Source: Ignavibacteriota bacterium (GTDB lineage: Bacteria > Bacteroidota > Ignavibacteria > UBA10030). From it: a DNA stretch of 64,000 bases. Below the pieces are notes generated by a model. That model was not told the DNA's origin and made no database searches. It saw only the letters and a list, made by a program, of their open reading frames with translations. The stretch's first letter is position 1. Every line of letters begins with the position of its first letter. Both the position numbers and the translations under genes were made by a program. Location: assembly GCA_963778945.1 (NCBI GenBank), contig CAVZWL010000005.1, positions 70,544 to 134,543 on the forward strand, read 5' to 3'. Below, piece by piece: positions 5,249-37,143 of this stretch.

Positions 5249-6541
5249 TGGCTCACAATTGTAATCCCGGTGCGTTTCGGTTTATTATCCAGCAGCCGGA
5301 AACCGTCCAGGTTATATTCCGATTCCCGCTTGTTCAGCATTTTTTCGGGAAAATATTGGCCTTCCACGTCTCTGACGACTTTAATACGGTCGATTTCCCC
5401 TTTGTTAAAATAGATATGAATTTTGTCGCCGCTGGATTTATTGGCGCCGTTCGGATCTTTCTTATCATAGATATAATAAAAACTCGTCGCATTTTGAAAC
5501 ACATCGATCTGCTGCACTTTATTTGCTGAGAAGTGCATCATCAATTGACGGCCGGTCAATTGATTGAACCTCGCAGGACGCAGGGAGTCTGCCGGCGAAA
5601 CTGCCATCGCGTGCCCGTGGACATAAAGACGCTTTAATTTTTTATTCTGCAGACGGATAAAAATTGAGTCGCCGGTAATTTGATTGTCGCTGCTCCAGAT
5701 GACCGGCCGTTGGCGGAGAATAATGCTGTCTTTTTTGACCAGAAACGTCGCTTCCCCGCATCGGGAAGCCATATCGGCCCGAATCATCTGAACATTGTCG
5801 TAGGCAAGGACGCGTTCGAGTGAATCTTTATAAGAGTGAATCAGAACAGCAGTGATAACCGTCGTATCGATAATGCCGCTCTCAGATGTATCGAATTGTA
5901 CGAGGCGCGGATGTTTGGCGGCAGATGTAAACTGCGTCATCTCTGAATGCAAGAGCGAATCCCCGTAAATATTTGTCCCGTTCGTTCGATCGATGACATG
6001 TGCTGAATCGAGAGCAATTGATTGGCGGGATTCTTCGAAGTACTGCAGATCGCGGCAGGTAATGATGGAGTTTGAATCGACGAGGACAACATTTTCTATA
6101 AACTCGGAATGTTTTGCATCCACATAGTATTTGCCGATTTTTGATGTCAAGATTGTGGAGCCGCGTTCAAGTCGTACGCCGCTGAATGTCTCCATGTAGC
6201 GGCGGTTGCCGTAATACACGCCCTCGTCCGAGTAACAGCGTTGAACTGTCGCGGACGACTTTGACGCGGCCGAAAAGCTCTATTTTATTTTGAACAACGT
6301 ACCGGAGCGCCCTGTCGCACCATACATGAACCAATCCGCCGGATTCCATCGGCTGAACAAAATAGACATGGCCGGTCAGTTCGCGAACCTCTTCTCCGTT
6401 GATAACTTTTCCCTCGAGGCGGTCTGCGGAGCGGAGATCGATCATTTTGCCGTTCTGCGCCGGAAGAGCCGCCGGTAAAACACAAAGCAGCAGAATGGAG
6501 AGCAGCCATAAGGAAATATCGTTCTGCTTTACGGGTTCCAT
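5245..6541 (-). CDS. large OstA-like/LptA-family periplasmic protein (about 430 aa) with an apparent frameshift near 6200-6260
   Basis: The N-terminal fragment has a signal peptide plus an OstA_N-like strand pattern (MIDLRSADRLEGKVINGEEVRELTGHVYFVQ). The downstream fragment continues in another frame and begins at a GTG. The gene sits between lptC and lptB, as in canonical clusters. Confidence 0.6.
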
Positions 6542-7083
6542 TGTGATTGCGCCTTGCCTGAAACTTGAAATATACGATAATGTTTCAAGTTTTGGTCCGA
6601 TTCAAAACCGTGTCCTTGAAGTTTTTCTTTGGGAGTTGTAATGGAAACGAAATCCGGCGTAAAAATAAGCTGGCGCCTGTCGCTCCAGAAGAGATGTTCC
6701 GAACGCAGGTGCGACGAATCGCTCGACACAACGAGAACATTTTTCTTAGCTTCCAGATCGTTCGTATTTTCATCGACGGTGCCTTCATCGCTTGTCAAAT
6801 GCGATGTCTCCTGTCCAGTTGCTCCGAAGAACCGGACATAAACGCCGCTGCGAAGTTCCGTTTGCTGTGTTGAATCGTACATGCGGATATTCCCGGCTCG
6901 AATGATGGCGCGGATCCGTCCCGAATCGGAAACTGTGATTGTGCTATTCCAGCTTTCCTGCTGGGGCAGGGAGCGGCTGTCGCCTGCGGCGAGTACGGAC
7001 GGTTTGATTTTTTCTTCGCACGATGGAAAGAGAAGAAGAAAAGAAAAAAAGGCCAAAACTTTGCTGGAGCGCCCGCTGATCAT
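6529..7083 (-). CDS. lptC: LptC-like lipoprotein of the LPS export system
   Basis: The protein is 184 aa with a signal peptide/lipobox region (LLLFPSC) and a size and beta-rich composition typical of LptC. It is positioned between kdsD and the LptA-like gene. Confidence 0.6.
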   Translation of the reverse strand: MISGRSSKVLAFFSFLLLFPSCEEKIKPSVLAAGDSRSLPQQESWNSTITVSDSGRIRAIIRAGNIRMYDSTQQTELRSGVYVRFFGATGQETSHLTSDEGTVDENTNDLEAKKNVLVVSSDSSHLRSEHLFWSDRRQLIFTPDFVSITTPKEKLQGHGFESDQNLKHYRIFQVSGKAQSQWNP

Positions 7084-8072
7084 ACGGTTGAATCTCCATG
7101 GAGTCCGGCTTCTACCAGATCATGAAGATGCAGAATGCCTGCGGGCTTGCGATCAGCGTCGACTACCACGAACTGTGTAATCTTGTACGTCTCCATCATT
7201 GCAAGCGCGCGCGCTGCGAGGAGGGAAGGCTGAATCGTTTTCGGATTCTTTGTCATGACCTGGCCTGCGGTAAGGTTTGCGATGTTCGTTGTATGCTGCA
7301 GCAAGCGCCGCAAATCGCCGTCCGTGATAATGCCTGCGAGTAATCCTTTGTCGTCCACAACGCACGTGGCGCCTAACCGTTTGGATGAAATTTCGACGAT
7401 TGCATCGGAAAGTGAAACCGACTCTCTGACAATCGGAATGTCTTTACCGGATATCATCAGTGATTCGACTTTGAGGAACAGCTGCTTTCCGAGATTGCCT
7501 CCCGGATGGAAAAAAGCAAAATCTTCCTTGGTAAAATCGCGTTTTTGCAGCAGTGCAATTGCCAGTGCATCTCCCATGACGAGCGCTGCGGTTGTGGACG
7601 AGGTCGGTGCAAGGTCGTGCGGGCAGGCTTCTTCTTTAACTCCCGTATCGAGAACGATATCGCACTGACGTGCAAGAATGGAATTTGCATTGCCGAGAAG
7701 AGCGATGATTCGGACGCCGATTTGTTTAAGCATGGGCAGTAATTTATTCACTTCTTCCGTATCCCCGCTTTTGGAAATGCAAATAACGACATCTTCCGGC
7801 GTCACAACGCCGAGGTCGCCGTGAAGGGCATCCGAGGGGTGGAGAAACAACGACGGGGTTCCCGTCGAATTCATCGTTGCAGAAATTTTTCGCGCAATAA
7901 TGCCGGATTTTCCCATGCCGGTGATGACAACCCTGCCTCTTGAATTGAAAATCATTTCAACGGCTTTCGAGAAGTTATCGTCGATGTGATGTTCGAGAGC
8001 GGCAATCGCTTCTGCTTCGATGCGAACAACAAGTTTTCCGTTTTCTATTGAAGAAGCCATTTTAGTTATCAT
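7080..8072 (-). CDS. kdsD: arabinose-5-phosphate isomerase (KpsF/GutQ family; SIS + tandem CBS)
   Basis: The SIS motifs (GMGKSGIIARKISATMNSTGTPS, ISKSGDTEE) are followed by two CBS domains. Confidence 0.85.
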   Translation of the reverse strand: MITKMASSIENGKLVVRIEAEAIAALEHHIDDNFSKAVEMIFNSRGRVVITGMGKSGIIARKISATMNSTGTPSLFLHPSDALHGDLGVVTPEDVVICISKSGDTEEVNKLLPMLKQIGVRIIALLGNANSILARQCDIVLDTGVKEEACPHDLAPTSSTTAALVMGDALAIALLQKRDFTKEDFAFFHPGGNLGKQLFLKVESLMISGKDIPIVRESVSLSDAIVEISSKRLGATCVVDDKGLLAGIITDGDLRRLLQHTTNIANLTAGQVMTKNPKTIQPSLLAARALAMMETYKITQFVVVDADRKPAGILHLHDLVEAGLHGDSTV

Positions 8073-8148
8073 TTATCAGTTATCAGTTGTCAGTTCCATT
8101 TACCATTTACCATTCACCATTTACTCTTCATACCTTACCCTTTACTGC
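8061..8148. repeat. 7-bp-period tandem array (TATCAGT x2, TGTCAGT, TCCATTT, ACCATTT, ACCATTC, ACCATTT ...). It is the reverse orientation of the GTAAATG/GTGAATG family and lies in the kdsD-kdsC spacer.
   Basis: Read directly from the sequence. The units are 7 nt, drift by single substitutions, and are the reverse complement of the array at 23717-23883. Confidence 0.8.
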
Positions 8149-8637
8149 TTTTAAAATCATATCGATGACTTCACGCACGGCTCCGTCGCCACCGCGATGG
8201 CTGCAGACGTAATGAACCTTTTTTTTCACCTGATTCATTCCGTTTGCGGGAGCCGCGGAAAATCCGGCACGCTGAAGAACCGGCAGATCGAACTCATCGT
8301 CTCCAATATAAGCTATTTCCCTATCCTGCAAAGAGTATTTCGTCTTGATTGCTTCATACACGCTCAACTTGTCTTCAAGATTCTGATGTACTTCGGTTAT
8401 GCCGAGATCCTGCGCGCGGCGTTCGACGATTTTTGAAATACGGCCTGTTATAATTCCTGCTTGAAGTCCGGCGCGATGCAGCTTGACGATTCCGTACCCG
8501 TCCTGGATATTGAATTTTTTGCATTCATCGCCGCTGTTCGAATAATAAATTCCGCCGTCGGTCATGACGCCGTCGACATCGAGAAGAAGAAACTTGATCG
8601 GGCGGAGCCGTCTATTCAAAGATGAAATTTTCGGCAC
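8128..8637 (-). CDS. kdsC: 3-deoxy-D-manno-octulosonate 8-phosphate phosphatase (HAD-IIIA)
   Basis: HAD motif I (LLLDVDGVMTDG) and the conserved GDD motif (GDDEFDLP) are present, and the 169-aa length matches KdsC. Confidence 0.8.
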   Translation of the reverse strand: MPKISSLNRRLRPIKFLLLDVDGVMTDGGIYYSNSGDECKKFNIQDGYGIVKLHRAGLQAGIITGRISKIVERRAQDLGITEVHQNLEDKLSVYEAIKTKYSLQDREIAYIGDDEFDLPVLQRAGFSAAPANGMNQVKKKVHYVCSHRGGDGAVREVIDMILKAVKGKV

Positions 8638-20597: not shown

Positions 20598-20646
20598 AAC
20601 TGCGAACTAAGCACTAAGAACCAAGAACTTTAAACGTTGAACGATG
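20598..20646. repeat. 7-bp-period array (AACTGCG, AACTAAG, CACTAAG, AACCAAG, AACTTTA, AACGTTG, AACGATG) upstream of ispE
   Basis: Read directly from the sequence; the common unit is AACnnnG. Confidence 0.7.
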
Positions 20647-20806: not shown

Positions 20807-21658
20807 ATGACATTATACGCCTATGCGAAAATCAATATTGGTCTGAATATACTCGGTAAGCGTCCGGACGAATACCACGATTTGGAAACAGTGTTTCATG
20901 AAATCGACCTTTACGACGAAATAACAGTTACACCTGCGGAAAGCGACGGTTTCGAATGCAGCACAGAAGACATTCCAACGGGCGAGGGTAATCTTTGCAT
21001 GCAGGCATTACGGCTCCTCCGGGCAGAACAAAAAAAAGACGGGTGTGTGCATATCGCGCTTATAAAAAACATTCCCATCGGTGCCGGTCTCGGCGGCGGA
21101 AGCAGCGATGCCGCGGCGATTCTGAAAGCCCTGAATAAGCTCTGGAATTTGAATCTGGACGCAGATGTTCTCTGCCAGTACGCGTTGAAGATCGGTTCCG
21201 ACGTTCCGTTTTTTATCCGCGGCGGAAGCGCCTCTGCACGCGGACGCGGAGAAATACTGGAACCGCTGCGGCTCGAAATTCCATTCTGGATCGTTCTTGT
21301 AACTCCGCCGCTCCATGTATCCACAGCGTGGGCATATAGAAATGTAAAAGTTCATAGGAACGGAATTCCAGCCGGAATCAAAACGGAGCTGCCTGGTGCG
21401 CTCAAAGATCCGGTTCTTCTTTCGCGGGTTGTTCAAAACGATTTTGAAGACATCGTCTTTTCGCAATATCCGGCTATTCGGAATATAAAATCCGAATTGC
21501 TGCGCTCCGGTGCATCCTTCGCTTTGATGAGCGGCAGCGGTTCTTCCGTTTTTGGACTTTATGATAACGAGGCAGCAGCCCGGCATGCCGTATGTTCTTT
21601 TCCCAAAGACCATGCCGTTTCGATCACGGCGCCATTTTTCAATGCACAAAATGATTAA
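20807..21658 (+). CDS. ispE: 4-diphosphocytidyl-2-C-methyl-D-erythritol kinase
   Basis: The GHMP kinase motif (PIGAGLGGGSSDAAAIL) and IspE N-terminal pattern (AKINIGLNILGKRPDEYHDLETVF) are present. Confidence 0.85.
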   Translation: MTLYAYAKINIGLNILGKRPDEYHDLETVFHEIDLYDEITVTPAESDGFECSTEDIPTGEGNLCMQALRLLRAEQKKDGCVHIALIKNIPIGAGLGGGSSDAAAILKALNKLWNLNLDADVLCQYALKIGSDVPFFIRGGSASARGRGEILEPLRLEIPFWIVLVTPPLHVSTAWAYRNVKVHRNGIPAGIKTELPGALKDPVLLSRVVQNDFEDIVFSQYPAIRNIKSELLRSGASFALMSGSGSSVFGLYDNEAAARHAVCSFPKDHAVSITAPFFNAQND

Positions 21659-23715
21659 ATATTCCTTTTTCCTTTTTGCATTTCATTGTGTAATGTGCAG
21701 CCCGGTGCAGGCGCAGCCCGTCCATCATGAGATGCCTGTGAAGAGTGCAGCAGCCGACACGTCGCATATTTTTAAAGTCGATTCGATCCGCTCTGCGACG
21801 CATCCTCTTCTTTTAGATTCCTTGCGGAAGGGGCACACAGCCGGGCCCGATTCCCTCCGAAAAGCGCATCAGGATACCGTGCACTTGAAAGATTCGACGG
21901 TCATCAGATTTATTCCCGGCATCGGCAAACTGACCGCTGCAACGGATACCGGCGACGTTCTCTATCGGGATCAGCTTCTCTGGACGGATGCAAAAACTCT
22001 CGGAGATGTGTTCTGGAAGCTCCCCGGATTTTTCTATCGCGGGCTCGGAGAAGCGGGCAAGGTACGGACAATTGAATGCTTACGGTACGGACGACCGGCG
22101 CATCAGCGTGCTTCTGGACGGCCGTCCGATGAACGATCCTATAACAGGAAGATATAACTACAACGACATGCCGCTCGAATTCTTAGACGAAGTAGAAATA
22201 TTATCCGGTTCCGAGAACGGATCAGCATCAAACGACGTTGCGATCAACTTTGTCTCGCGGTCATACAATTCTGTACGTCCGTTTACAAAAATCCGGTTTG
22301 TTCAGGATCCGGAGGAAGATCTTCTGACCGATTTTCTTTATACGCAAAATATTGCACGGGGATTGAATCTGATGGCGGCATTCGACAGGACCGTGACCAA
22401 CGGGAACTATTTCAATGCCGCACTCGATGCATGGAACGTCCGGACCCGTCTGCGGTATAATATTTCCGACCGCGTAAACATTTCTCTCAGCTATTTCTAT
22501 ACAAAAGCAACGAACGGTTTAAATGATGGAGTCATACTTGATGCCAATGCCTACCTTCCGGGGAATGCATCCGTGATTAACCTAAGCACTTTTGATATAC
22601 GTACGCGGCAGGACATTACATTTGCAGCCGCTGCACGGCTTTTGCCCGATTCCGCATCGATGACGAGAGTGAATGTTTTTTATACGAATACAACCCGGGA
22701 ATTTGACAGTTCGGATGTGCCTCATTTCCTGCAGGAAAATTCTGCAGTTATGCAGGGATATGATTTACGCCAGGACCTGCGCCTTCCGCTCACGCGGTGG
22801 AACTTCGGATATCAATGGCAAAAAACAACCGTTGATCCTTCCGTTCAATTGTTGAATGTCCCGAACCAAGTTCAATCCGCTGTTTATGTTCAGGCCTCGG
22901 CAGATTCACTTCCCCTGCTGCATCCGGAATTCGTTGTTCGCCGGGAATGGGTCGGGAGCGAAGAAGGTTCCTTGCTCGGACTGGGTGTGACTGCCGTTCC
23001 GTCGGATTATTTGACTATGTATGCAAAGAGTTCCTGGTACGATCGTTTCCCGAGCATCCAGGAACAGTATTGGGCAGATTCTCTGCTCTTTCGCCCGGCA
23101 TCGTTGAAAAAAGAACGTCATGTTTTTTTACAGGGCGGATTTCTTTTCCATCCTTCCGATAATATTTCGATCAGTCTGGAGGCTTTTCAACGAACTATAA
23201 CCGATGCTATCCTGTATCAGCCGGCGCAGACGATCTACGGTACTTCGGCGCTCAATGTAGTCAATATCGATAAGATCGATGTGCAGGGGATAACCGGAAG
23301 TTTTCGGTGGAAAATAGGAGGATTCGAAGCGTACGGCGTGATGACGCTGTCCAAGTACAAAGAAGCGGACACGTTAAAAACGCTCATGCCGGATGTGATT
23401 CTTTCAGGCGAATTTTCCTATCGCGACCTGTTCTTTGAAAAAGCACTCGACGCAAAATTCGGCCTCCGGTCTATCTTTTACAACCGGGAAAACGGCGAGC
23501 AGCTGGATCCGGAGATGATGGTATATTCGGAATCTCATTCGTTCGTACTCGGACGATGTACAACGGTCGATCTTTTTGCAATTCTCAAAGTCGGCGATGC
23601 GCATCTTTCCGTGACATGGGCAAATATTTTCGGGATTAATTATATCCTCTCGCCGATCTATCCGATGCCCGGCAGGCATTTCCGGCTCGGCGTTCATTGG
23701 AACTTTCTGGATTGA
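21651..23715 (+). CDS. TonB-dependent-receptor-like outer membrane beta-barrel protein with a single-base frameshift at about 22060
   Basis: A signal peptide (MIKYSFFLFAFHCVMCSPVQA) precedes a plug-domain pattern that is split across two frames (FFYRGLGEAG|(K)YGQLNAYGTDDRRISVLLDGRPMNDP). A long beta-rich C-terminal region ends in GVHWNF. The start overlaps the ispE stop (aaATGAttaa). Confidence 0.55.
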
Positions 23716-23716
23716 G

Positions 23717-23883
23717 TAAAAATGGTAAATGGTGAATGGTAAATGGTGAATGGTAAATGGTGAATGGTAAATGGTAAACTGTAAGCTGTAAACTGTAAAC
23801 TGTAAAACCATATAACCGAAGAATTGCTGATCAATACTAAGAACCACGAACCACGAACTACGAACTAAGAACTAAGAACTATT
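23717..23883. repeat. largest 7-bp-period composite array: (GGTAAAT/GGTGAAT)x8 then (TAAACTG/TAAGCTG)x4, a degenerate bridge, then (CGAACCA/CGAACTA/AGAACTA)x6
   Basis: Read directly from the sequence. It lies immediately after the stop of the outer membrane protein gene and upstream of the LOG-family gene. Confidence 0.85.
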
Positions 23884-23925
23884 AAACCGCATCACGGCAG
23901 CACGTTGAACTGAAGCACATTTTAA

Positions 23926-24468
23926 ATGTCTAAAATCATTACAGTTTTTGGAAGTGCACGGCAGGAAGAAAACACGCCGGATTACATGCTTGCATACGAT
24001 CTTGGCAAAGAACTTGCTTCTGCGGGTTTTATTCTTTGCAACGGCGGATTCAGGGGAGTCATGGAAGCTTCGGCGCGTGGTGCGAAAGAAGCCGGCGGTA
24101 AAACAATCGGCGTGACATTCGATATCAGCGGACGGAAACCGAACCCATGGGTCGATGAAATCGTGCACGTTCCACAACTCATCGACCGGATGCTCAAGCT
24201 TATCGAATTGGGAGATGCCTATGTTGTTCTCAAAGGAGGAACCGGAACACTTCTTGAATTTGTTGCGGTATGGGAATATGTCAATAAAGGACTGATGCGG
24301 GAAAAACCGATCGTCCTTATCGGCAATTTCTGGCGCAGAGTCGTAACGACGATGCGCGAAGAACTGTTATGGGAGGGGATCGGCGATTGTACGAAATTGG
24401 TCCGCCATGTTTCTTCACCAAAAGAATGTGTGGAATTATTGCAATTGACAGTGAACAGAAAACTGTAA
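23926..24468 (+). CDS. LOG-family / TIGR00725-type Rossmann-fold nucleotide-binding protein
   Basis: The motifs VFGSAR, GGFRGVMEA and KGGTGTLLEF are present. Confidence 0.75.
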   Translation: MSKIITVFGSARQEENTPDYMLAYDLGKELASAGFILCNGGFRGVMEASARGAKEAGGKTIGVTFDISGRKPNPWVDEIVHVPQLIDRMLKLIELGDAYVVLKGGTGTLLEFVAVWEYVNKGLMREKPIVLIGNFWRRVVTTMREELLWEGIGDCTKLVRHVSSPKECVELLQLTVNRKL

Positions 24469-24520
24469 ACTGTAAACAGGAACCATTCAACAGTAAAACT
24501 AAAGAACTGAACAACCAATC
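24452..24520. repeat. 7-bp-period array (AACTGTA x2, AACAGGA, ACCATTC, AACAGTA, AAACTAA, AGAACTG, AACAACC)
   Basis: Read directly from the sequence. It overlaps the 3' end of the LOG-family gene and the spacer before the cupin gene. Confidence 0.7.
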
Positions 24521-24961: not shown

Positions 24962-25016
24962 TTACGAAGAATCAAGAATTGAGGAGTAAGAACTAAGAAC
25001 TCCGAACTTCTACTCC
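24962..25016. repeat. 7-bp-period array (…AGAATCA, AGAATTG, AGGAGTA, AGAACTA, AGAACTC, CGAACTT…) between the convergent cupin and GT9 genes
   Basis: Read directly from the sequence. Confidence 0.65.
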
Positions 25017-26108: not shown

Positions 26109-28858
26109 TTACGGTTGTGTTTGAATTTGCCTTCGCATCTGTGCGATTACCTCTTCGGCCCCCGAATGCGGCCCGTAAACGGATTGAAGAAGCGCTATGA
26201 CAGCTTCGGCATCCTTCGGCTGCTGCAATTCCCTGTAGCATGTAAAAAGAACGATATACGAATTATAACCCGAGAACGCTTCCTGAACGCGCCGGCCTGT
26301 GGTCACTTTCAGCTCGTCCACGAGCTCGTGAAGAAGTTCATTCGTACGTTCACGGTTGTGAAGGGAATGATAAAACGACGCAAGGTCGTATTTGATCTTA
26401 TAGTTCATTCCTACCGACCGGCGCGGCATCACTTCTTCCATACGATCGAGGATGCGAGATGCTTTCTCCGGCTGGTGCTGAACGTTCATGGCTTGCATAG
26501 CATAAAGGAAAAACATGCTTCGATAATTCGCAACGGCCATCTGCACGGTTCCTTCAAACGGCGTATTCGTTGCGGATTGAAATCCGCGCCAGGAAAATCC
26601 ATAACGGGGAATTTTGGAAAATTCATGCGGTGCATCGAAAAGATTCGCCGAAACGATCCGCTCGGCTGTGTCCGGCCACAATTGAACAGCGGAGTACGGT
26701 AACCAGCTTATAGGCCAATCCGGCCATCTGTAAATGATTACGGAGTCCGAGCGTTCCGTTCGGCGAGTACGCTTGATGCGAAATATATCGGCCGGCGGAA
26801 TGCCGCGGTTCTCACCATGTCGAATAACAGAACATCCTGGGGGCGAAGCCCTTTGAGTCTCCCTTGTAAAATTGTGCTCGGCATAAAAAATCTAAAAACA
26901 CTCCGATTCAAAACCGATGAATCGGACGATGTAAAAGAATCACCGATGCGATATCGTTGAACCGTTTCGCTGTCGATCGGAATTTCGATCATTTGCGGCT
27001 GGAATTGCACGGGCTGCAGGTCCTCCAATTCCGCATCTGTCGACGAGAAAGGAACAGGCGCTGCTCCGTACGGTGTATCGTGCTTGAGCTGCAGGGCATA
27101 CCACGATGTGTTGAGTAAAGTCAGATTGACAACCCGGATGTCCCGCCGGATACCGTCGACGTTTTGGAGATACCACAAAGGGAATGTATCATTGTCGCCG
27201 TTCGTTATAAGAACAGCATTGTTTTCGCAGCTCTGCAAAAGGTTATAGGCATAATCGTAAGCAACATAGTTGTCTTTTTGATTCGAGGAAGCATAGTTGG
27301 CTGCGAACATATTAACCGGTACGAAGAAAAAAGCAAGAGAAAGCATTCCGAAGACGGCGCTCTGCTGTTTCTGAGGATCGGCAATCGAATTTTTTAAAAA
27401 ATCCGCTGCCGCGCTTATTCCGATACCTATCCACAGAGAAAAAATTAAAAACGAACCGGCGTATAAATTATCATATTCATGCGGCTGCGGGCCCTGCTGG
27501 TTTTGAGCCCAGGCAAGACAAATTCCCGAAAGCAGAAAAAGGAGCGTCAGAGCAGAGGCCAGCGGAATATGAGTCCGCCATAACCTATAGAGACCGAGCA
27601 GGCCGAAAAGCGCCGGGATAAAGAAGAGCTGCCGCCATCGTATTCCCGCATCGTTAAAGTTTCCTTCGCAGCCGATCTCATTCCATCCCAGATAACGAAG
27701 GTACATATGAATGGTTTGGTACGAAAGGAAGTAATCGAAGTCGCTCGAATATTGTTTATGAAATGTCTGCTTCTCAGATTCGGTGCTCCACCGGCGATTC
27801 AGGAGAGGAGTATCGATCCATTCCTGCCGGCTGGAATACGACGCCCACCGTGCGAGAGAACCCGGATTTGTTTCATTGATCGGAGGATGCGCCTGTGCTC
27901 GAATGAAAATCACAGCTGAGGTCGACGATCCGAGAACGACGAAAAGAAAACAAAGGATAATCAAACGGTATCCCAGGTATTGGCGCCGGCAACACTCGTA
28001 CAATCCATAAAGGGAAGCCATAAGAATGAAAAGAGGCAAAAAAGAAAAGAGCGAACTTTTAATTCCGAAAAACTCTCCGCCAAGAAGCGACGGAAGGAAC
28101 GACACGACTCCCGCTGCGATGAGAAAAAAAAGCGCAAAGGCATAGAGGGCGAACCGCGCGAAGTGTTCTCTCGAAAACTCGTGATATCTATTGTACCACA
28201 GCAGGAACAGCGGCAGGACGGCCAATGCGGAAAGCAAATGCACGCCGACGGACAATCCGGAAATATAGGCGATAAGCAGAATTCGGCGGGGACTTTGTTC
28301 CGATTCTTCGCTCATATACCAATGCAGTCCCAGCCAGAGAATGACAGCAAAGAAAAACAGGCCGGCTGTCGTGATGTTCGCTTGAACGGCATTTTGCCAG
28401 AAAGTTTTTGAAAAAGACAGCGAAAGGGCTCCGATAAATCCGGAACCGTAGAGAATAAAATTACCGGCCAGCGAAGGAGGGATTTCCATCTGGTGCCGAA
28501 GAATTTTTATGATGACAGCGTACAGGATCGTGCAGGTCAGGCCGCTTGCAGCAGCGGAAAGCAGATGCATGCGTGCGGCGGGATCGTGAAAGAAAGGAAT
28601 CATCGCTGCGATGCGCGCCAAAAGAAGAAAAAGAGGCGCTCCGGGTGCGTGCGGTATCTGAAGAGAGAATGCAGCCGTGCATACTTCGCCGACATCCCAG
28701 AAGAGAACGGTCGGGGCAAGCGTTATCATGTAGGTCGCAAATGAAACCGCGAATACAACTGCTGCAACCCATCGATTGATTTTTTTTTCTTCCATATTTT
28801 CCTTCAGAATCTCAAAGCAAAGTACGTATAATGTAGGTTGAAAAGGTTTGAACATCAA
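26109..28858 (-). CDS. large DUF2723/PMT-like polytopic membrane protein with TPR-like C-terminal region; likely one gene with a -1 frameshift near 26690-26740
   Basis: A 706-aa multi-TM ORF (…TYMITLAPTVLFWDVGE…) is followed 57 bp downstream, in another frame, by a 190-aa helical ORF. The second frame is open across the first ORF's stop. Confidence 0.5.
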
Positions 28859-30138: not shown

Positions 30139-30264
30139 GTAAATGGTTAATAGTAAATAGTAAATGGTAAACTGTGAACTGTAAAGAGTAAACAGAAAAC
30201 TAAACAACTGATTAACTGATTAACATTCTGTCTTCTTCATTCTCAATTCTTAATTCTTAATTCT
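30139..30264. repeat. 7-bp-period composite array (GTAAATG, GTTAATA, GTAAATA, GTAAATG, GTAAACT, GTGAACT, GTAAAGA, GTAAACA ... TGATTAA x2 ... TCATTCT, CAATTCT, TAATTCT x2) in the lepB-hemW spacer
   Basis: Read directly from the sequence. Confidence 0.8.
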
Positions 30265-32142: not shown

Positions 32143-33941
32143 CTATTCTTCCATAGAGAGGACGGCGAGAAATGCTTCCTGGGGAATCTCCACACGGCCT
32201 ACCTGTTTCATACGTTTTTTACCCTCTTTTTGTTTCTCCAGAAGTTTGCGTTTGCGCGAAATATCGCCGCCGTAGCATTTAGCCAGAACGTTTTTCCTCA
32301 TCGCGCTGAGCGTTTCCCGTGCGATAACCTTGCTGCCGATAGCCGCCTGTATGGCTACTTCGAACATTTGACGATGGATCAGCTTCCGAAGTTTCTGGCA
32401 CATCTTTCGTCCCCACTCATACGATTCTTCGCGGTGAACAATGGTGGACAGCGCATCGACCGGTTCTCCGTTGAGGAGAATATCCAGCTTGACCAGTTCG
32501 GATTCCCTGTATTCCAGCAGGTCGTAATCGAACGAAGCATATCCGCGCGAAATGGATTTCAGCTTATCGTAAAAATCGAAAATGATTTCGGAAAGGGGAA
32601 GTTCATAATGAATATCGGCGCGTTCGGGGCTCAGGTATGTCGTGTTTTTGTGTATACCGCGCCGGTCCATGCAGAGTTTCATGATATTTCCGATGTATTC
32701 GGTCGGAACGATAATTTGCGCCTTGACGAAAGGTTCTTCTACTTTTTCAATCATACCGGCGTCCGGCATCAATGCCGGATTGTCTACGAAGAGAACATCA
32801 TGGTCTGTCTTTGTCACTCGGTATTCGACGTTGGGAACCGTATTGATGAGCGATTGATTATATTCCCGTTCAAGGCGTTCACGGACGATCTCCATGTGAA
32901 GCAGCCCGAGAAAGCCGGCACGGAATCCGAAACCGAGGGCGACGGATGTTTCCGGCTCAAAGACCAAAGATGCGTCGTTGAGTTTTAATTTTTCGAGCGC
33001 TTCACGCAGTTCGGAAAATTCATCGCTGTTGGTCGGATAAATTCCGCTAAAGACCATCGGCTTCGCTTCCTTATATCCGGGAAGCGGCTCCGGCGCAGGA
33101 TTGCCCGCAAGTGTGATCGTATCCCCGACTTTGGTATCGTGGACATCCCGCAGATTGGCAATAATATAACCGACATCCCCGGCGGAGAGGGACCCGGTCC
33201 GCTTACGCTGCATTTCCAGTATGCCGATGTCTTCCGCCTGGAAATCCCTTCCGTTTGAAAAAAAGCGTATCTGGTCTTTTTCCTTGATCGAGCCGTCTAT
33301 AACGCGAACGTAGGCGATTGCACCGCGGAACTCGTCGAATACGGAATCGAAAATAAGCGCCTTCAGAGGCGCCTGCGGATCTCCCTGCGGCGGCGGAATG
33401 CGCTTGACGATCGCTTCCAGAACCTCCTCAGTCCCGATTCCCGATTTAGCGCTGCCCATGAGAATCTCTTCTTCCGTACAGCCGATGAGGTCGATAATCT
33501 GCTTCTTGACCATTTCGATCATCGTCTTAGCACTGGGCAGATCGATCTTGTTGATAAAAGGTATGATCTCCAGGCCGGCATCGATTGCGAGGTAAAGGTT
33601 GGAAATTGTCTGTGCTTCGACGCCTTGTGTAGCATCGACGACGAGGATCGCTCCCTCACATGCGGCGAGGGAGCGGGATACTTCATACGTAAAATCGACG
33701 TGTCCCGGCGTGTCGATAAGGTTGAGAGTGTATTCTTTTTTATTGCGCGCTTTATACTGGAGCTGAATGGCATGCAGCTTGATGGTAATGCCGCGCTCCT
33801 GTTCCAGTTCCATGTCGTCGAGGACCTGTTTGGTCATGTCCCGCGAGGCAATCGTACCGGTGTATCCAGAAGCCGGTCAGCCAGAGTCGATTTACCGTGA
33901 TCGATATGTGCTACAATGCAAAAATTACGAATATGATCCAT
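32143..33941 (-). CDS. lepA: elongation factor 4 (LepA) with a single-base frameshift at about 33855-33865
   Basis: The G1 motif, start ([25 protein letters not shown]) and the region up to the junction are in one frame; the rest (…[20 protein letters not shown]… to the C-terminus) is in another. The junction lies at ACACCGGTAC. Confidence 0.85.
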
Positions 33942-34049
33942 TTTCAAAACTCAATCCAATAAAACGATAAAGAGTAAAGAGGGGTTAGCCGCTCTTTACT
34001 CCTTTCTTTCTTAAAGATATTCAAAAATGGGGAGAAGAGCAATGAGCGA

Positions 34050-34106
34050 TAAAGAGTAAATGGTGAATGGTAAATGGCGAATGGTAAATGGTGAATGGCG
34101 TCACGT
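34050..34106. repeat. 7-bp-period array (GTAAATG, GTGAATG, GTAAATG, GCGAATG, GTAAATG, GTGAATG) in the divergent lepA/epimerase promoter region
   Basis: Read directly from the sequence. Confidence 0.8.
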
Positions 34107-34195
34107 TTGTTTAATGTTTTGCCTTTTTGTTCTTTTGTTTGCTATATTCTTTTCATTATTCACAGTTTTCCGGTTGCTCATCAACAAGGAAATAC

Positions 34196-36079: not shown

Positions 36080-36087
36080 TTTTTTAA

Positions 36088-36226
36088 GCTGTAAACGGTA
36101 AACTGTGAACTGTGAACTGTAAAGAGCAAATCAACTGAATAACAAAGTAACCAAATAACCAAATAACGGATTAACGCATCACATTGAAAAACGAACTACG
36201 AACTTAGAACTATGAACCAATGAACT
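36088..36226. repeat. 7-bp-period composite array (GCTGTAA, ACGGTAA, ACTGTGA x2, ACTGTAA ... CCAAATA/ACCAAAT ... GAACTAC, GAACTTA, GAACTAT, GAACCAA, TGAACTA) in the ridA-parB spacer
   Basis: Read directly from the sequence. Confidence 0.8.
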
Positions 36227-36230
36227 ATTT

Positions 36231-37143
36231 TTATTTTTTCCCTTCCGTAAACAAATCCAAGAGCCGGTCAAAATCGTCCAGCGAATAAAATTCTATTATT
36301 ATTTCACCCCGTCCGCTTCCTTTCGTATGTACTTTTACCCTGGTTCCGAGCGATTGTTGAAGACGTTCTTCAAGGCTGTGCAAGTTTGCTGAGGCGCCGC
36401 TGCCGGCTGATTTCGTCGGTCTTGCGGAATTTTTTCCTGCAGACCGGACAATATCTTCCACTTTGCGGACGGAAAGTCCGCCGTCGACGATTTTATCGTA
36501 TGTCCGGAGCTGAGTTTTTTCGCTCGGCAAATTGATGAGCGCGCGGGCATGTCCCATCGAAATTTTATTTTTTCGAAGCCCGTCCTGAATTTTAGATGGA
36601 AGCTTTAAAAGGCGGATAAAATTCGTCACGGTGCTGCGGTCTTTTCCGACCTTTCTGGGCGATATCGTCCTGGTTCAAATGGCATTCGTCGATAAGCCGC
36701 TGATACGCCGCAGCCACTTCGATCGGATTCAAATATTCCCGCTGAATGTTCTCGATGAGAGCGAGTTCCAGCATTTCTTCGTCGTTCTCGATGGAGATGA
36801 TATACGCGGGAATGTGTTTGAGCCGCGCAAGCTGCGCAGCGCGCAGACGCCGTTCTCCGGAAATGAGCTGGTAGCCGTTTTCCGTCCGGCGAATAGTAAT
36901 CGGCTGAATGATTCCTTTTTCCCTGATCGACCGCGTTAGTTCGTCAAGAGCGCTCTGATCGAAATCGGTTCTCGGCTGAAAAGGATTCGGATGAATTTTT
37001 CCGATCTCGATATTGGCAATGATGCCGACCTCTCCGGTGTCGGTCCCGATCGAGGTATCGCGGACATTGACCTCCATCTGCGGGGTCTTAGGAATAAGTG
37101 CGTTGAGTCCTCGTCCGAGGACGGGTTTTTTATTCGTACTCAT
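36231..37143 (-). CDS. parB: chromosome partitioning protein ParB/Spo0J with a single-base frameshift at about 36650
   Basis: The N-terminal ParB box (GIIQPITIRRTENGYQLISGERRLRAAQLA) is in one frame. The HTH and C-terminal part (...KVGKDRSTVTNFIRLLKLP…) is in another. The junction lies at CAGAAAGGTCGG. Confidence 0.8.

Follow-up and report, generated by a model that had tools for sequence, protein, structure and literature searches.

Heptanucleotide tandem arrays in the spacers of an Ignavibacteria-like lineage: probable clade-specific, slippage-driven simple sequence repeats

Tandem arrays of 7-bp units occupy eight intergenic spacers of a 64,000-nt stretch of DNA from an Ignavibacteriota bacterium (assembly GCA_963778945.1, contig CAVZWL010000005.1, positions 70,544 to 134,543 of the forward strand; hereafter the window), among them a composite array at 23717–23883 between genes for a TonB-type receptor and a LOG-family protein. 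The arrays are specific to one clade and fixed in position, and they evolve in whole units far faster than their flanks without being hypervariable within populations. We consider them probably to be heptanucleotide simple sequence repeats (SSRs), that is, 7-nt bacterial microsatellites, which are driven by slippage and tolerated only in the non-coding DNA of this Ignavibacteria-like lineage. Among the long simple repeats of bacteria, those with a heptanucleotide unit are the most frequent; to our knowledge, there is no accepted explanation for the unit length of 7 or for the preference of each genome for a few units, nor an established role of the repeats. Bacterial heptanucleotide SSRs and a TAACTGA repeat are known already. 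What is added here is an A/T-rich, clade-specific family together with a comparative series.

The initial annotation, made from the sequence alone, had listed heptamer arrays in eight spacers. Tandem Repeats Finder (TRF) recovered head-to-tail arrays with a period of 7 bp, or its 14- or 21-bp multiples, at all eight loci. A self-match scan at lag 7 (28-bp windows, ≥80% self-match) returned five regions in the window and none in 50 block shuffles, while lags 4–6 and 9–11 gave no region and lags 8 and 12 gave one each. Unit 7-mers are concentrated in the arrays: 12 of the 17 GTAAATG copies lie in them, although they make up 1.2% of the window. No comparable array was found in any other spacer when the whole window was scanned; all the heptamer arrays fall between 8 and 36 kb, and the 21 spacers of the 38–64 kb part contain none. 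The period had been called strict, which holds for most arrays but not for two sub-blocks, 30206–30224 (AACTGATT) and 36138–36167 (AATAACCA), where it is 8 bp. Three loci (20598–20646, 24452–24520 and 24962–25016) are short or degenerate in the window, with two to four copies, and are credible only because the orthologous spacers of relatives hold 6–10 copies.

The main unit classes are GTRAATG, CTGTRAA and GAACNAN, with TAACTGA as a minor class. All are A/T-rich and C-poor and can be written as AAYNRNN (AATGGTA, AACTGTA, AACTGAT, AACTAAG and others), and they differ from what we take to be the canonical units of the short tandemly repeated repetitive (STRR) sequences of cyanobacteria. Most unit types put stop codons in all three frames of the A-rich strand, which is the plus strand at seven of the eight window loci. 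All eight loci lie in spacers, and the overlap with coding sequence is confined to the last two to five codons of one gene. As annotated, the arrays are found after stop codons, between convergent genes, between divergent genes and in operon spacers, and several have a stop codon a few bases before their first unit or a start codon at their end.

Other classes of repeat were also considered. The arrays had been judged unlike CRISPR arrays, correctly so: repeats of 23–50 bp with unique spacers were not found, and the units measure 7–8 bp and are directly adjacent. Nor do the window arrays resemble MITEs (small transposable elements with inverted repeats) or repetitive extragenic palindromic (REP) sequences, as they share no core common to the loci, fold weakly and show neither terminal inverted repeats nor target-site duplications. 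Rfam 15 covariance models at the gathering score gave no match in the 64 kb, not even a tRNA. An A-rich repeat of 6/12/24 bp at 2063–2124 is unrelated to the heptamer family; it lies inside a gene, codes for the K/E/T-rich low-complexity tail of a Zn-ribbon protein (1846–2154) and was rejected as a member. Common motifs beside the arrays (RTTGAACKR, GYRTCACR) were likewise rejected, having few matches, some of them inside genes.

Evidence for evolution in whole units comes from relatives, whose syntenic contigs were reached in other assemblies through the LOG-family and KpsF proteins. By nucleotide identity these are lineage D (L133, L134; 89% to the window), L142 (87% to the window) and L147 (88.6% to L142), lineage B (L121, L122; 81–84% to the window, the two strains being 94% identical to each other), lineage C′ (L135–L140; 82% to the window and 96.2% to C), lineage C (L123–L132; 82% to the window) and lineage E (L143; 68% to the window). 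Comparison of orthologous spacers, proposed in the initial annotation as a way to look for unit-number variation, did uncover it: arrays occupy the same spacer positions across related lineages, with copy numbers and units differing. The suggestion of a lineage-specific repeat is borne out by presence in five related lineages and absence from relatives at about 68% identity. L143, L148 and L149 (66–75% protein identity) carry no arrays in the 20 kb sampled from each.

The series is clearest in the spacer between the TonB-type receptor and LOG-family genes. In the window, 23717–23883 consists of eight GTAAATG/GTGAATG units, about five CTGTAAA units, a 30-bp non-repeat core and about six GAACCAC/GAACTAC/GAACTAA units. 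The alternating GTAAATG/GTGAATG array (23720–23778, plus strand; TRF 8.4 copies, or 3.9 copies of a 14-bp super-unit with 100% match) begins about 5 nt past the receptor stop codon and runs into the CTGTAAA (GTAAACT)-class array (23774–23806, plus strand; 4.7 copies). Then come the non-repeat island CCATATAACCGAAGAATTGCTGATCAATAC (23808–23837, plus strand), the GAACCAC/GAACTAC/GAACTAA-class array (23836–23881, plus strand; 6.6 copies) and a second island, CCGCATCACGGCAGCACGTTGAACTGAAGCAC (23887–23918, plus strand), just upstream of the LOG-family start at 23926. This architecture is shared by five lineages: GTAAATG-type units come first, then GTAAACN-type units, the core CCATATAACCGAAGAATTGCTGAYAAATAC, units of the NNNGAAC type and, before the start codon, CCGCRTCACGGCAGCRCRTTGAACTRAA. 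Before and after the core, the units number 8 + 5 and 6 in the window, 4 + 5 and 4 in D, 3 + 5 and 5 in B, about 7 degenerate and 4 in C′, and 2 and 2 in C, in spacers of 210, 177, 175, 156 or 118 bp. Orthologues of the first array have 4 (D), 3 (B), degenerate (C′) or 0 (C) units, and those of the GAAC-type array have 4, 5, 4 and 2 copies. The first island is conserved in four of the five lineages while the neighbouring arrays change, and the second is kept in all five. Judging from this conservation, both islands are presumably real regulatory elements of the LOG-family gene, the second possibly a leader element; no convincing sigma-70-type or sigma-54-type consensus was found in either. The block order GTAAATG, CTGTAAA, GAACTAA that the initial annotation had reported for several arrays is complete here and only partial elsewhere.

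Three other spacers behave in a comparable manner. Between the convergent cupin and GT9 heptosyltransferase genes, the units number 3 in the window, 8 in D, 6 and 10 in the two B strains, 6 in C and 8 in C′. Upstream of lepA there are 6 GTRAATG units in the window, 6 GRATTGY in B, 3 GAATTGY in C and about 10 GTRAATR in C′. This is concerted change, with units homogenised inside an array and differing among lineages. The spacer between kdsC and kpsF measures 13 nt without any repeat in E, and has 1 GTGAATG and about 2 AACTGAC units in L147, 4 + 5 units in the window and 5 + 8 in L142 (about 8 of them TAACYGA, a class absent from L143); it ends at the kpsF ATG in every case. When C and C′ are compared, every large length difference falls in an array spacer, and the only indel of more than one base across a 6.4-kb alignment adds two units (14 bp) to the cupin–GT9 array.

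Within lineages the arrays are identical, in 10 C assemblies (99.7–99.99% identity), 6 C′ assemblies (99.7–100%) and 2 D assemblies (99.1%), a comparison of consensus assemblies that covers mostly lineages with short arrays. Since lineages differ by whole units and near-identical strains do not, the arrays are fast-evolving yet not hypermutable. An apparent 20-bp array deletion in L137 (around 14760) was set aside as an NN scaffold gap and not a clean polymorphism. The L141 contig begins, at its position 1, inside kpsF and beside an array. Because short-read contigs end beside arrays or have N gaps inside them, copy numbers at these places in public metagenome-assembled genomes are unreliable. 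A metagenome scan with the conserved core CATATAACCGAAGAATTGCTGA gave no match, and thus no additional strains of the window's lineage.

A scan for (GTRAATG)×3 with one genome per species returned at least 120 loci, and the counts below refer to the matches listed. Represented are Acidobacteriota (Pyrinomonadaceae among them), Bacteroidota (including many Chitinophagaceae), Mesorhizobium, Campylobacterales, cyanobacteria, Planctomycetota, Verrucomicrobiota and further groups. Every match is embedded in the genomic context of the organism concerned, which contradicts the earlier notion that identical arrays in unrelated taxa would point to contamination. The 120 listed loci contain 435 arrays of period 7, 14 or 21 with 55–82 different canonical units per group, indicating that heptamer arrays are a general phenomenon and that the accompanying units are not common to the groups. 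Of these 435 arrays, 61% are non-coding, compared with a non-coding share of about 14% in that DNA, and 60 lie in convergent spacers versus 28 in divergent ones. In co-directional spacers of the listed loci, arrays with the A-rich strand in sense number 66 and those with it in antisense 63 (28 and 18 in Bacteroidota). Control of orientation by transcription was rejected as an overall rule, the Bacteroidota trend among the listed loci being weak. Array orientation showed no association with local GC skew at the 120 listed loci, and an orientation set by replication was dropped as probably due to chance or synteny; the cumulative GC skew of the window turns near 20 kb.

In Pyrinomonadaceae and Mesorhizobium, GTRAATG arrays also occur as inverted pairs able to form long, near-perfect hairpins (L020 1830–1900, L027 2410–2480, L036 2050–2130, L049 6300–6400, L019 560–700 and L069 7380–7500), and a direct array some 150 bp long is present in Mesorhizobium L013. 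The inverted GTRAATG hairpin arrangement was not seen in the window. We found no description of these inverted pairs and of the long direct array in the searchable literature, and a literature search on the exact repeat strings brought up nothing relevant.

Taken together, the arrays have the properties of long SSRs: tandem 7-nt units beyond chance expectation, a mainly non-coding location, and whole-unit copy-number change at the same site. Concerted change of units, seeds of one or two copies in some lineages and the absence of an orientation rule match such repeats as well. Fixed spacer position, gain and loss of whole units, homogenisation within arrays, conserved flanks and islands, and confinement to one clade are all directly seen in the comparisons above. 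Based on these data, we propose that the arrays arose by slipped-strand mispairing during replication or repair, from seeds of one or two copies. Non-coding DNA would be the only place where they last, since 7 is not divisible by 3. They may be largely neutral or selfish filler and not a required regulatory device, since the same junctions tolerate anything from 0 to 8 units and lineage E needs no more than 13 nt between kdsC and kpsF. Longer spacers, poor secondary structure and, for most unit types, stop codons in every frame of the A-rich strand follow from the sequence as side effects, and the arrays probably uncouple translation of neighbouring cistrons.

Several observations weigh against this proposal. 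A small number of unit classes is used repeatedly at non-homologous spacers, with an order that is partly shared, and the kdsC–kpsF spacer gained the very GTRAATG and TAACTGA units that are used elsewhere. Such recurrence is not predicted by independent slippage from random seeds and suggests a dispersal mechanism, a mutational preference or selection for particular units. Moreover, the arrays have been kept at the same sites over about 18% nucleotide divergence despite the usual deletion bias of bacteria. The A-rich strand is sense in five of the seven window arrays that face a gene start, and three arrays adjoin start codons, which is compatible with a leader function. The population data, finally, come from consensus assemblies of mostly short-array lineages. 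The restricted recurrence of units keeps two rivals alive, namely a heptad-binding factor or leader function and a mechanism of copying or dispersal.

If the arrays were cis-acting leader or intercistronic elements, an S1, cold-shock-type or other protein would bind one heptad each at the RNA or single-strand level and tune translation or stability without Shine-Dalgarno initiation. We regard this as unlikely. It is favoured by the restricted unit set re-used at unrelated spacers, by the strand preference at start-facing window arrays (and the 28:18 ratio in listed Bacteroidota loci), and by the TAACTGA-class array that adjoins the kpsF start in forward orientation, an arrangement that MacGregor reported in Beggiatoaceae and Flexibacter (PMC4679880). 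Read as RNA from either strand, the arrays are also far less structured than other spacers, with a minimum free energy (MFE) per nt of 0 to −0.15 kcal/mol versus −0.21 ± 0.07 for other window spacers. However, the A-rich strand is antisense in two spacers (HemN-like/LepB and RidA/ParB), in one case at a distance of 5 nt from a start codon; there are arrays between convergent genes and past stop codons as well; no orientation bias exists over all taxa (66:63, listed loci); the copy number at the same junction ranges from 0 to 8 in close relatives, with 13 nt sufficing in E; and no binding protein is known. Rather improbable, in our view, is dedicated or semi-dedicated copying, in which a selfish family spreads by templated repair or gene conversion, as the footprint of a mobile element, or by horizontal transfer of repeat and binding factor. 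The partly shared block order at non-homologous spacers, the units gained by the kdsC–kpsF spacer and absent from lineage E, the GTRAATG arrays of many phyla, and a synteny break beside the lepA-upstream array would fit such a process. Against it, the arrays have no terminal inverted repeats, target-site duplications or common non-repeat core; other phyla use 55–82 heptamer units near their GTRAATG arrays without a common repertoire (listed loci); growth took place in situ from one-copy seeds, as seen from L147 to the window to L142; and the sole insertion sequence (IS) seen was itself inserted into an array, with its own 9-bp duplication. A combination of both ideas, which we hold to be similarly improbable, is a heptad system of the clade, in which a restricted set of AAYNRNN units linked by mutation is seeded into unrelated spacers by specific copying or kept there by a heptad-binding protein, and the arrays act as structure-free leaders or insulators with stops in all frames, where Shine-Dalgarno sequences are not used. 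The recurrence of GTRAATG across phyla would then represent a widespread mechanism and, including the long hairpins of Pyrinomonadaceae and Mesorhizobium, would reflect an undescribed process of recognition or generation and not chance.

The initial annotation had also raised a slipped-strand contingency locus, and here its two halves part. Slippage as the source of the arrays is supported by the copy-number differences by multiples of 7 among lineages. Contingency, in which gain or loss of units alters promoter or 5′-untranslated-region length and thereby switches or grades expression, as at hmw1A/hmw2A of Haemophilus influenzae (PMC8262952, PMC12721329), is very unlikely: arrays are identical in the 18 assemblies from different samples at 99.1–100% identity within lineages. 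Some arrays do lie upstream of envelope genes (kpsF, LOG beside the TonB receptor, heptosyltransferase), and the NN gap in L137 could hide heterogeneity. However, the arrays are interrupted and imperfect, lie also after stop codons and between convergent genes, and flank housekeeping genes (lepA, lepB, parB, ridA, kdsC), and the organism appears from accession names to be a free-living peat or wetland bacterium, not a host-adapted pathogen. The likewise suggested curvature element, or phased nucleoid-protein sites with three units per two helical turns, is still less probable. Each unit has an A3 tract, 21 bp is close to two turns, and independence of orientation would suit a role of the double strand. 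Yet no A-tracts phased as in curved DNA were found: AA/TT steps are coherent at 7 bp (up to 0.91), whereas their coherence at the 10.5-bp helical period is 0.04–0.17, below that of random windows (0.22) and of a phased A-tract control (0.74). Geometrically, a 7-bp unit turns by about 240 degrees, so that bends would cancel every three units, leaving no intrinsic curvature to be expected. Copy number varies, the period is 8 bp in two blocks, and nothing supports face-specific protein binding at every third unit. An assembly or sequencing artefact has a negligible probability. Several frameshifted genes in the window do suggest an error-prone long-read assembly, but independent short- and long-read assemblies of other samples and lineages have arrays at the same sites, which rules the artefact out. 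As a whole, then, the initial interpretation is partly supported. A terminator scan found none at the arrays, and a promoter scan there returned only phased, weak sigma-70-like hexamers made by the repeats themselves on the T-rich strand; the host consensus probably differs.

Among published systems, the heptameric repeats of Xanthomonas and Nostoc (GGGNATC / GGGGAYT) are close in several respects. They are 89–93% intergenic and occur on both strands without a leading/lagging preference, they occupy convergent spacers about twice as often as divergent ones, and related species keep them between the same genes with wide variation in length and sequence (Rehm et al. 2015, PMC4692102). The family described here shares the 7-nt unit, an overwhelmingly intergenic position near open reading frame (ORF) ends on either strand, with no preference by replication strand, retention between the same genes and occasional inverted pairs. 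The listed loci of other genomes share the excess of convergent over divergent spacers (60 vs 28), and slippage is the proposed origin in both systems. Mrazek et al. (2007, as cited in PMC4692102 and PMC4679880) grouped such repeats as ‘long SSRs’ with units of 5–11 nt, of which heptamers are over-represented, possibly through polymerase slippage. In contrast to the Xanthomonas and Nostoc repeats, units here are A/T-rich and C-poor (GTAAATG, CTGTAAA, GAACTAA, TAACTGA), several classes are chained in one spacer, and the host is Ignavibacteria-like. With this composition no G-quadruplex is possible.

A second parallel is the TAACTGA repeat, direct copies of which lie a short way upstream of start codons in Beggiatoaceae, in cyanobacteria and in five Bacteroidetes, and for which a heptad-binding factor or a leader function in Shine-Dalgarno-less translation was proposed (MacGregor 2015, PMC4679880). 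The same study reported that other heptamers form larger assemblages in these spacers, that the spacers of close relatives are shorter and free of repeats, and that contigs end in the repeats. The array at 8064–8095 is a forward (TAACTGA)n that ends at the kpsF start, and AACTGATT at 30206–30224 is an 8-bp variant, so that the published repeat is extended to an Ignavibacteria-like lineage. As in Gramella, Aequorivita and Elizabethkingia, other heptamers share these spacers. Close relatives also have shorter spacers without repeats, and contigs break in the repeats. Here, however, TAACTGA is a minor class, and the whole network of related heptamers is repeated, whereas related heptamers are rarely repeated in Beggiatoaceae.

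For the STRR heptamers of cyanobacteria, roles in transcript stability or translational coupling have been proposed (PMC2670836). These too are 7-bp tandem units in intergenic or intercistronic DNA, with a small, genome-specific unit set, and are sometimes arranged to form hairpins. The window arrays belong to another phylum, with Bacteroidota/Ignavibacteria-like gene content, and are direct and poorly structured; the inverted arrangements possible in STRR occur here only in lineages C and C′ and in the unrelated Pyrinomonadaceae and Mesorhizobium. The hmw1A/hmw2A repeats (PMC8262952, PMC12721329) likewise have a 7-bp tandem unit upstream of a gene and change in copy number by slippage. They vary within populations and grade adhesin expression, whereas here near-identical strains are identical and the neighbours are housekeeping genes. 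No length heterogeneity as expected of phase-variable SSRs was detected among 10 C, 6 C′ and 2 D consensus assemblies, mostly with short arrays and one with an NN gap in an array.

What makes the family worth following is its restricted unit repertoire recurring at non-homologous spacers. Six lineages form a natural series that leads from no array through one-copy seeds to 8–10 units, with conserved islands between. The series demonstrates growth in situ and fast turnover without switching at the population level, and by itself implies no new mechanism. For annotation, the arrays make spurious ORFs on their stop-free strand (for example 23404–23847, minus strand), fragment short-read assemblies and displace the predicted starts and stops of genes, and masking is advisable.

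The remaining loci are as follows. In the kdsC–kpsF operon spacer, a GTAAATG/GTGAATG-class array (8096–8124, minus strand; TRF CCATTTA on the plus strand, 4.1 copies) lies directly after the kdsC stop codon. The adjoining TAACTGA-class array (8064–8095, minus strand; 4.6 copies) reads AGTTATC on the plus strand and GATAACT/TAACTGA, in full GATAACTGATAACTGATAA, on the minus strand; its end coincides with the start codon of kpsF, an ATG at either 8060 or 8072 (minus strand). It contains at least two tandem copies of TAACTGA as direct repeats, and it alone combines forward orientation with a distance of a few nt from a start codon; elsewhere the arrays are made of different units. The divergent ICMT/GHMP-kinase spacer has an imperfect GAACTAA-class array (20604–20629, plus strand; 3.7 copies) about 180 nt upstream of the kinase start, where relatives carry GTAAATG/GTAAACT units. 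In the LOG–cupin spacer, a degenerate CTGTAAA-class block (24452–24520, plus strand; TRF 24460–24477, 2.6 copies) overlaps the stop codon of LOG. About three to four degenerate NAAGAAC-class units (24962–25016, plus strand; TRF 24987–25001, 2.1 copies) lie between the convergent cupin and GT9 genes. The last two to five codons and the TAG stop of the GT9 heptosyltransferase gene (minus strand) are built of array units there (24993–25016), and the C-terminal tail of the protein varies by lineage (…VRSS*, …GRSS*, …RGS*).

The operon spacer between LepB and the HemN-like gene contains GTAAATR and then GTRAACT units (30139–30200, plus strand; about nine units by TRF), their A-rich strand being antisense to the flanking genes, and 2.4 copies of AACTGATT (30206–30224, plus strand; TRF). 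An AGAATTA-class array (30233–30264, minus strand; TTCTTAA/TAATTCT on plus; 4.6 copies) begins about 3 nt past the LepB stop codon. In lineages C and C′, arrays of the AGAATTA class form an inverted pair, one on either side of this spacer. The same spacer of L135–L138 (e.g. L135 14213–14581) holds one of the clade's other small repeats, a 245-bp insertion whose ends resemble GTCATTCCC...GGGAATCCAG. Between ParB and RidA, a CTGTAAA/CTGTGAA-class array (36085–36123, plus strand; 5.6 copies) begins 5 nt upstream of the RidA start (minus strand), again with the A-rich strand antisense to the genes. It is followed by the 8-bp-period block of AATAACCA (36138–36167, plus strand; TRF 3.8 copies) and a GAACTAC/GAACTTA/GAACTAT-class array (36191–36217, plus strand; 3.9 copies) that adjoins the ParB stop codon.

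In the divergent lepA/epimerase spacer, six GTAAATG/GTGAATG/GCGAATG units (34056–34098, plus strand; TRF 14-bp unit, 3.1 copies) lie about 28 nt upstream of the epimerase ORF start. A hairpin, AAAGAGTAAAGAGGGGTTAGCCGCTCTTTACTCCTTTCTTT (33969–34009; MFE about −19 to −20 kcal/mol), precedes the variable array in this spacer and is conserved in every lineage examined there (B, C, C′); it may be a leader, terminator or small RNA element. Synteny breaks right after the array: window positions 34099–34126 lead into the epimerase gene, while B, C and C′ have different sequence there (L123 20181–20543, L121 17580–17905). This fits MacGregor's remark on repeats as rearrangement points, in one case only.

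The window has a Bacteroidota-type gene set by Pfam (DUF5683, Porin_10, a TonB-type receptor, kdsA-kdsC-kpsF, heptosyltransferase, lepA, lepB, parAB), and the closest named homologues are labelled Ignavibacteriae, Ignavibacteriales or Bacteroidota bacterium. Several genes are broken or frameshifted relative to intact orthologues in relatives (21552–23715, 26109–28858, 33838–33940 and 36231–37143), namely those for the TonB-type receptor (693 aa in relatives), a TMEM260-like glycosyltransferase (about 900 aa), LepA at its N-terminus, and ParB. That lepA and parB are among them points to indel errors in a long-read assembly and not to true pseudogenes. In L122 (about 6913–8240), the IS mentioned above (transposase DDE_Tnp_1 + DUF4372, 7058–8227) lies inside a GTAAATG array with the 9-bp target duplication GTAAATGGT, and the sister strain L121 lacks it. 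Another small repeat of the clade, a GACATTATCAGGCCTCC...GGCAGGTTTATCCGCCTCGGGCGGAC element that recurs at 5726–6221 and 8606–9852 of L141, is MITE- or REP-like in appearance.

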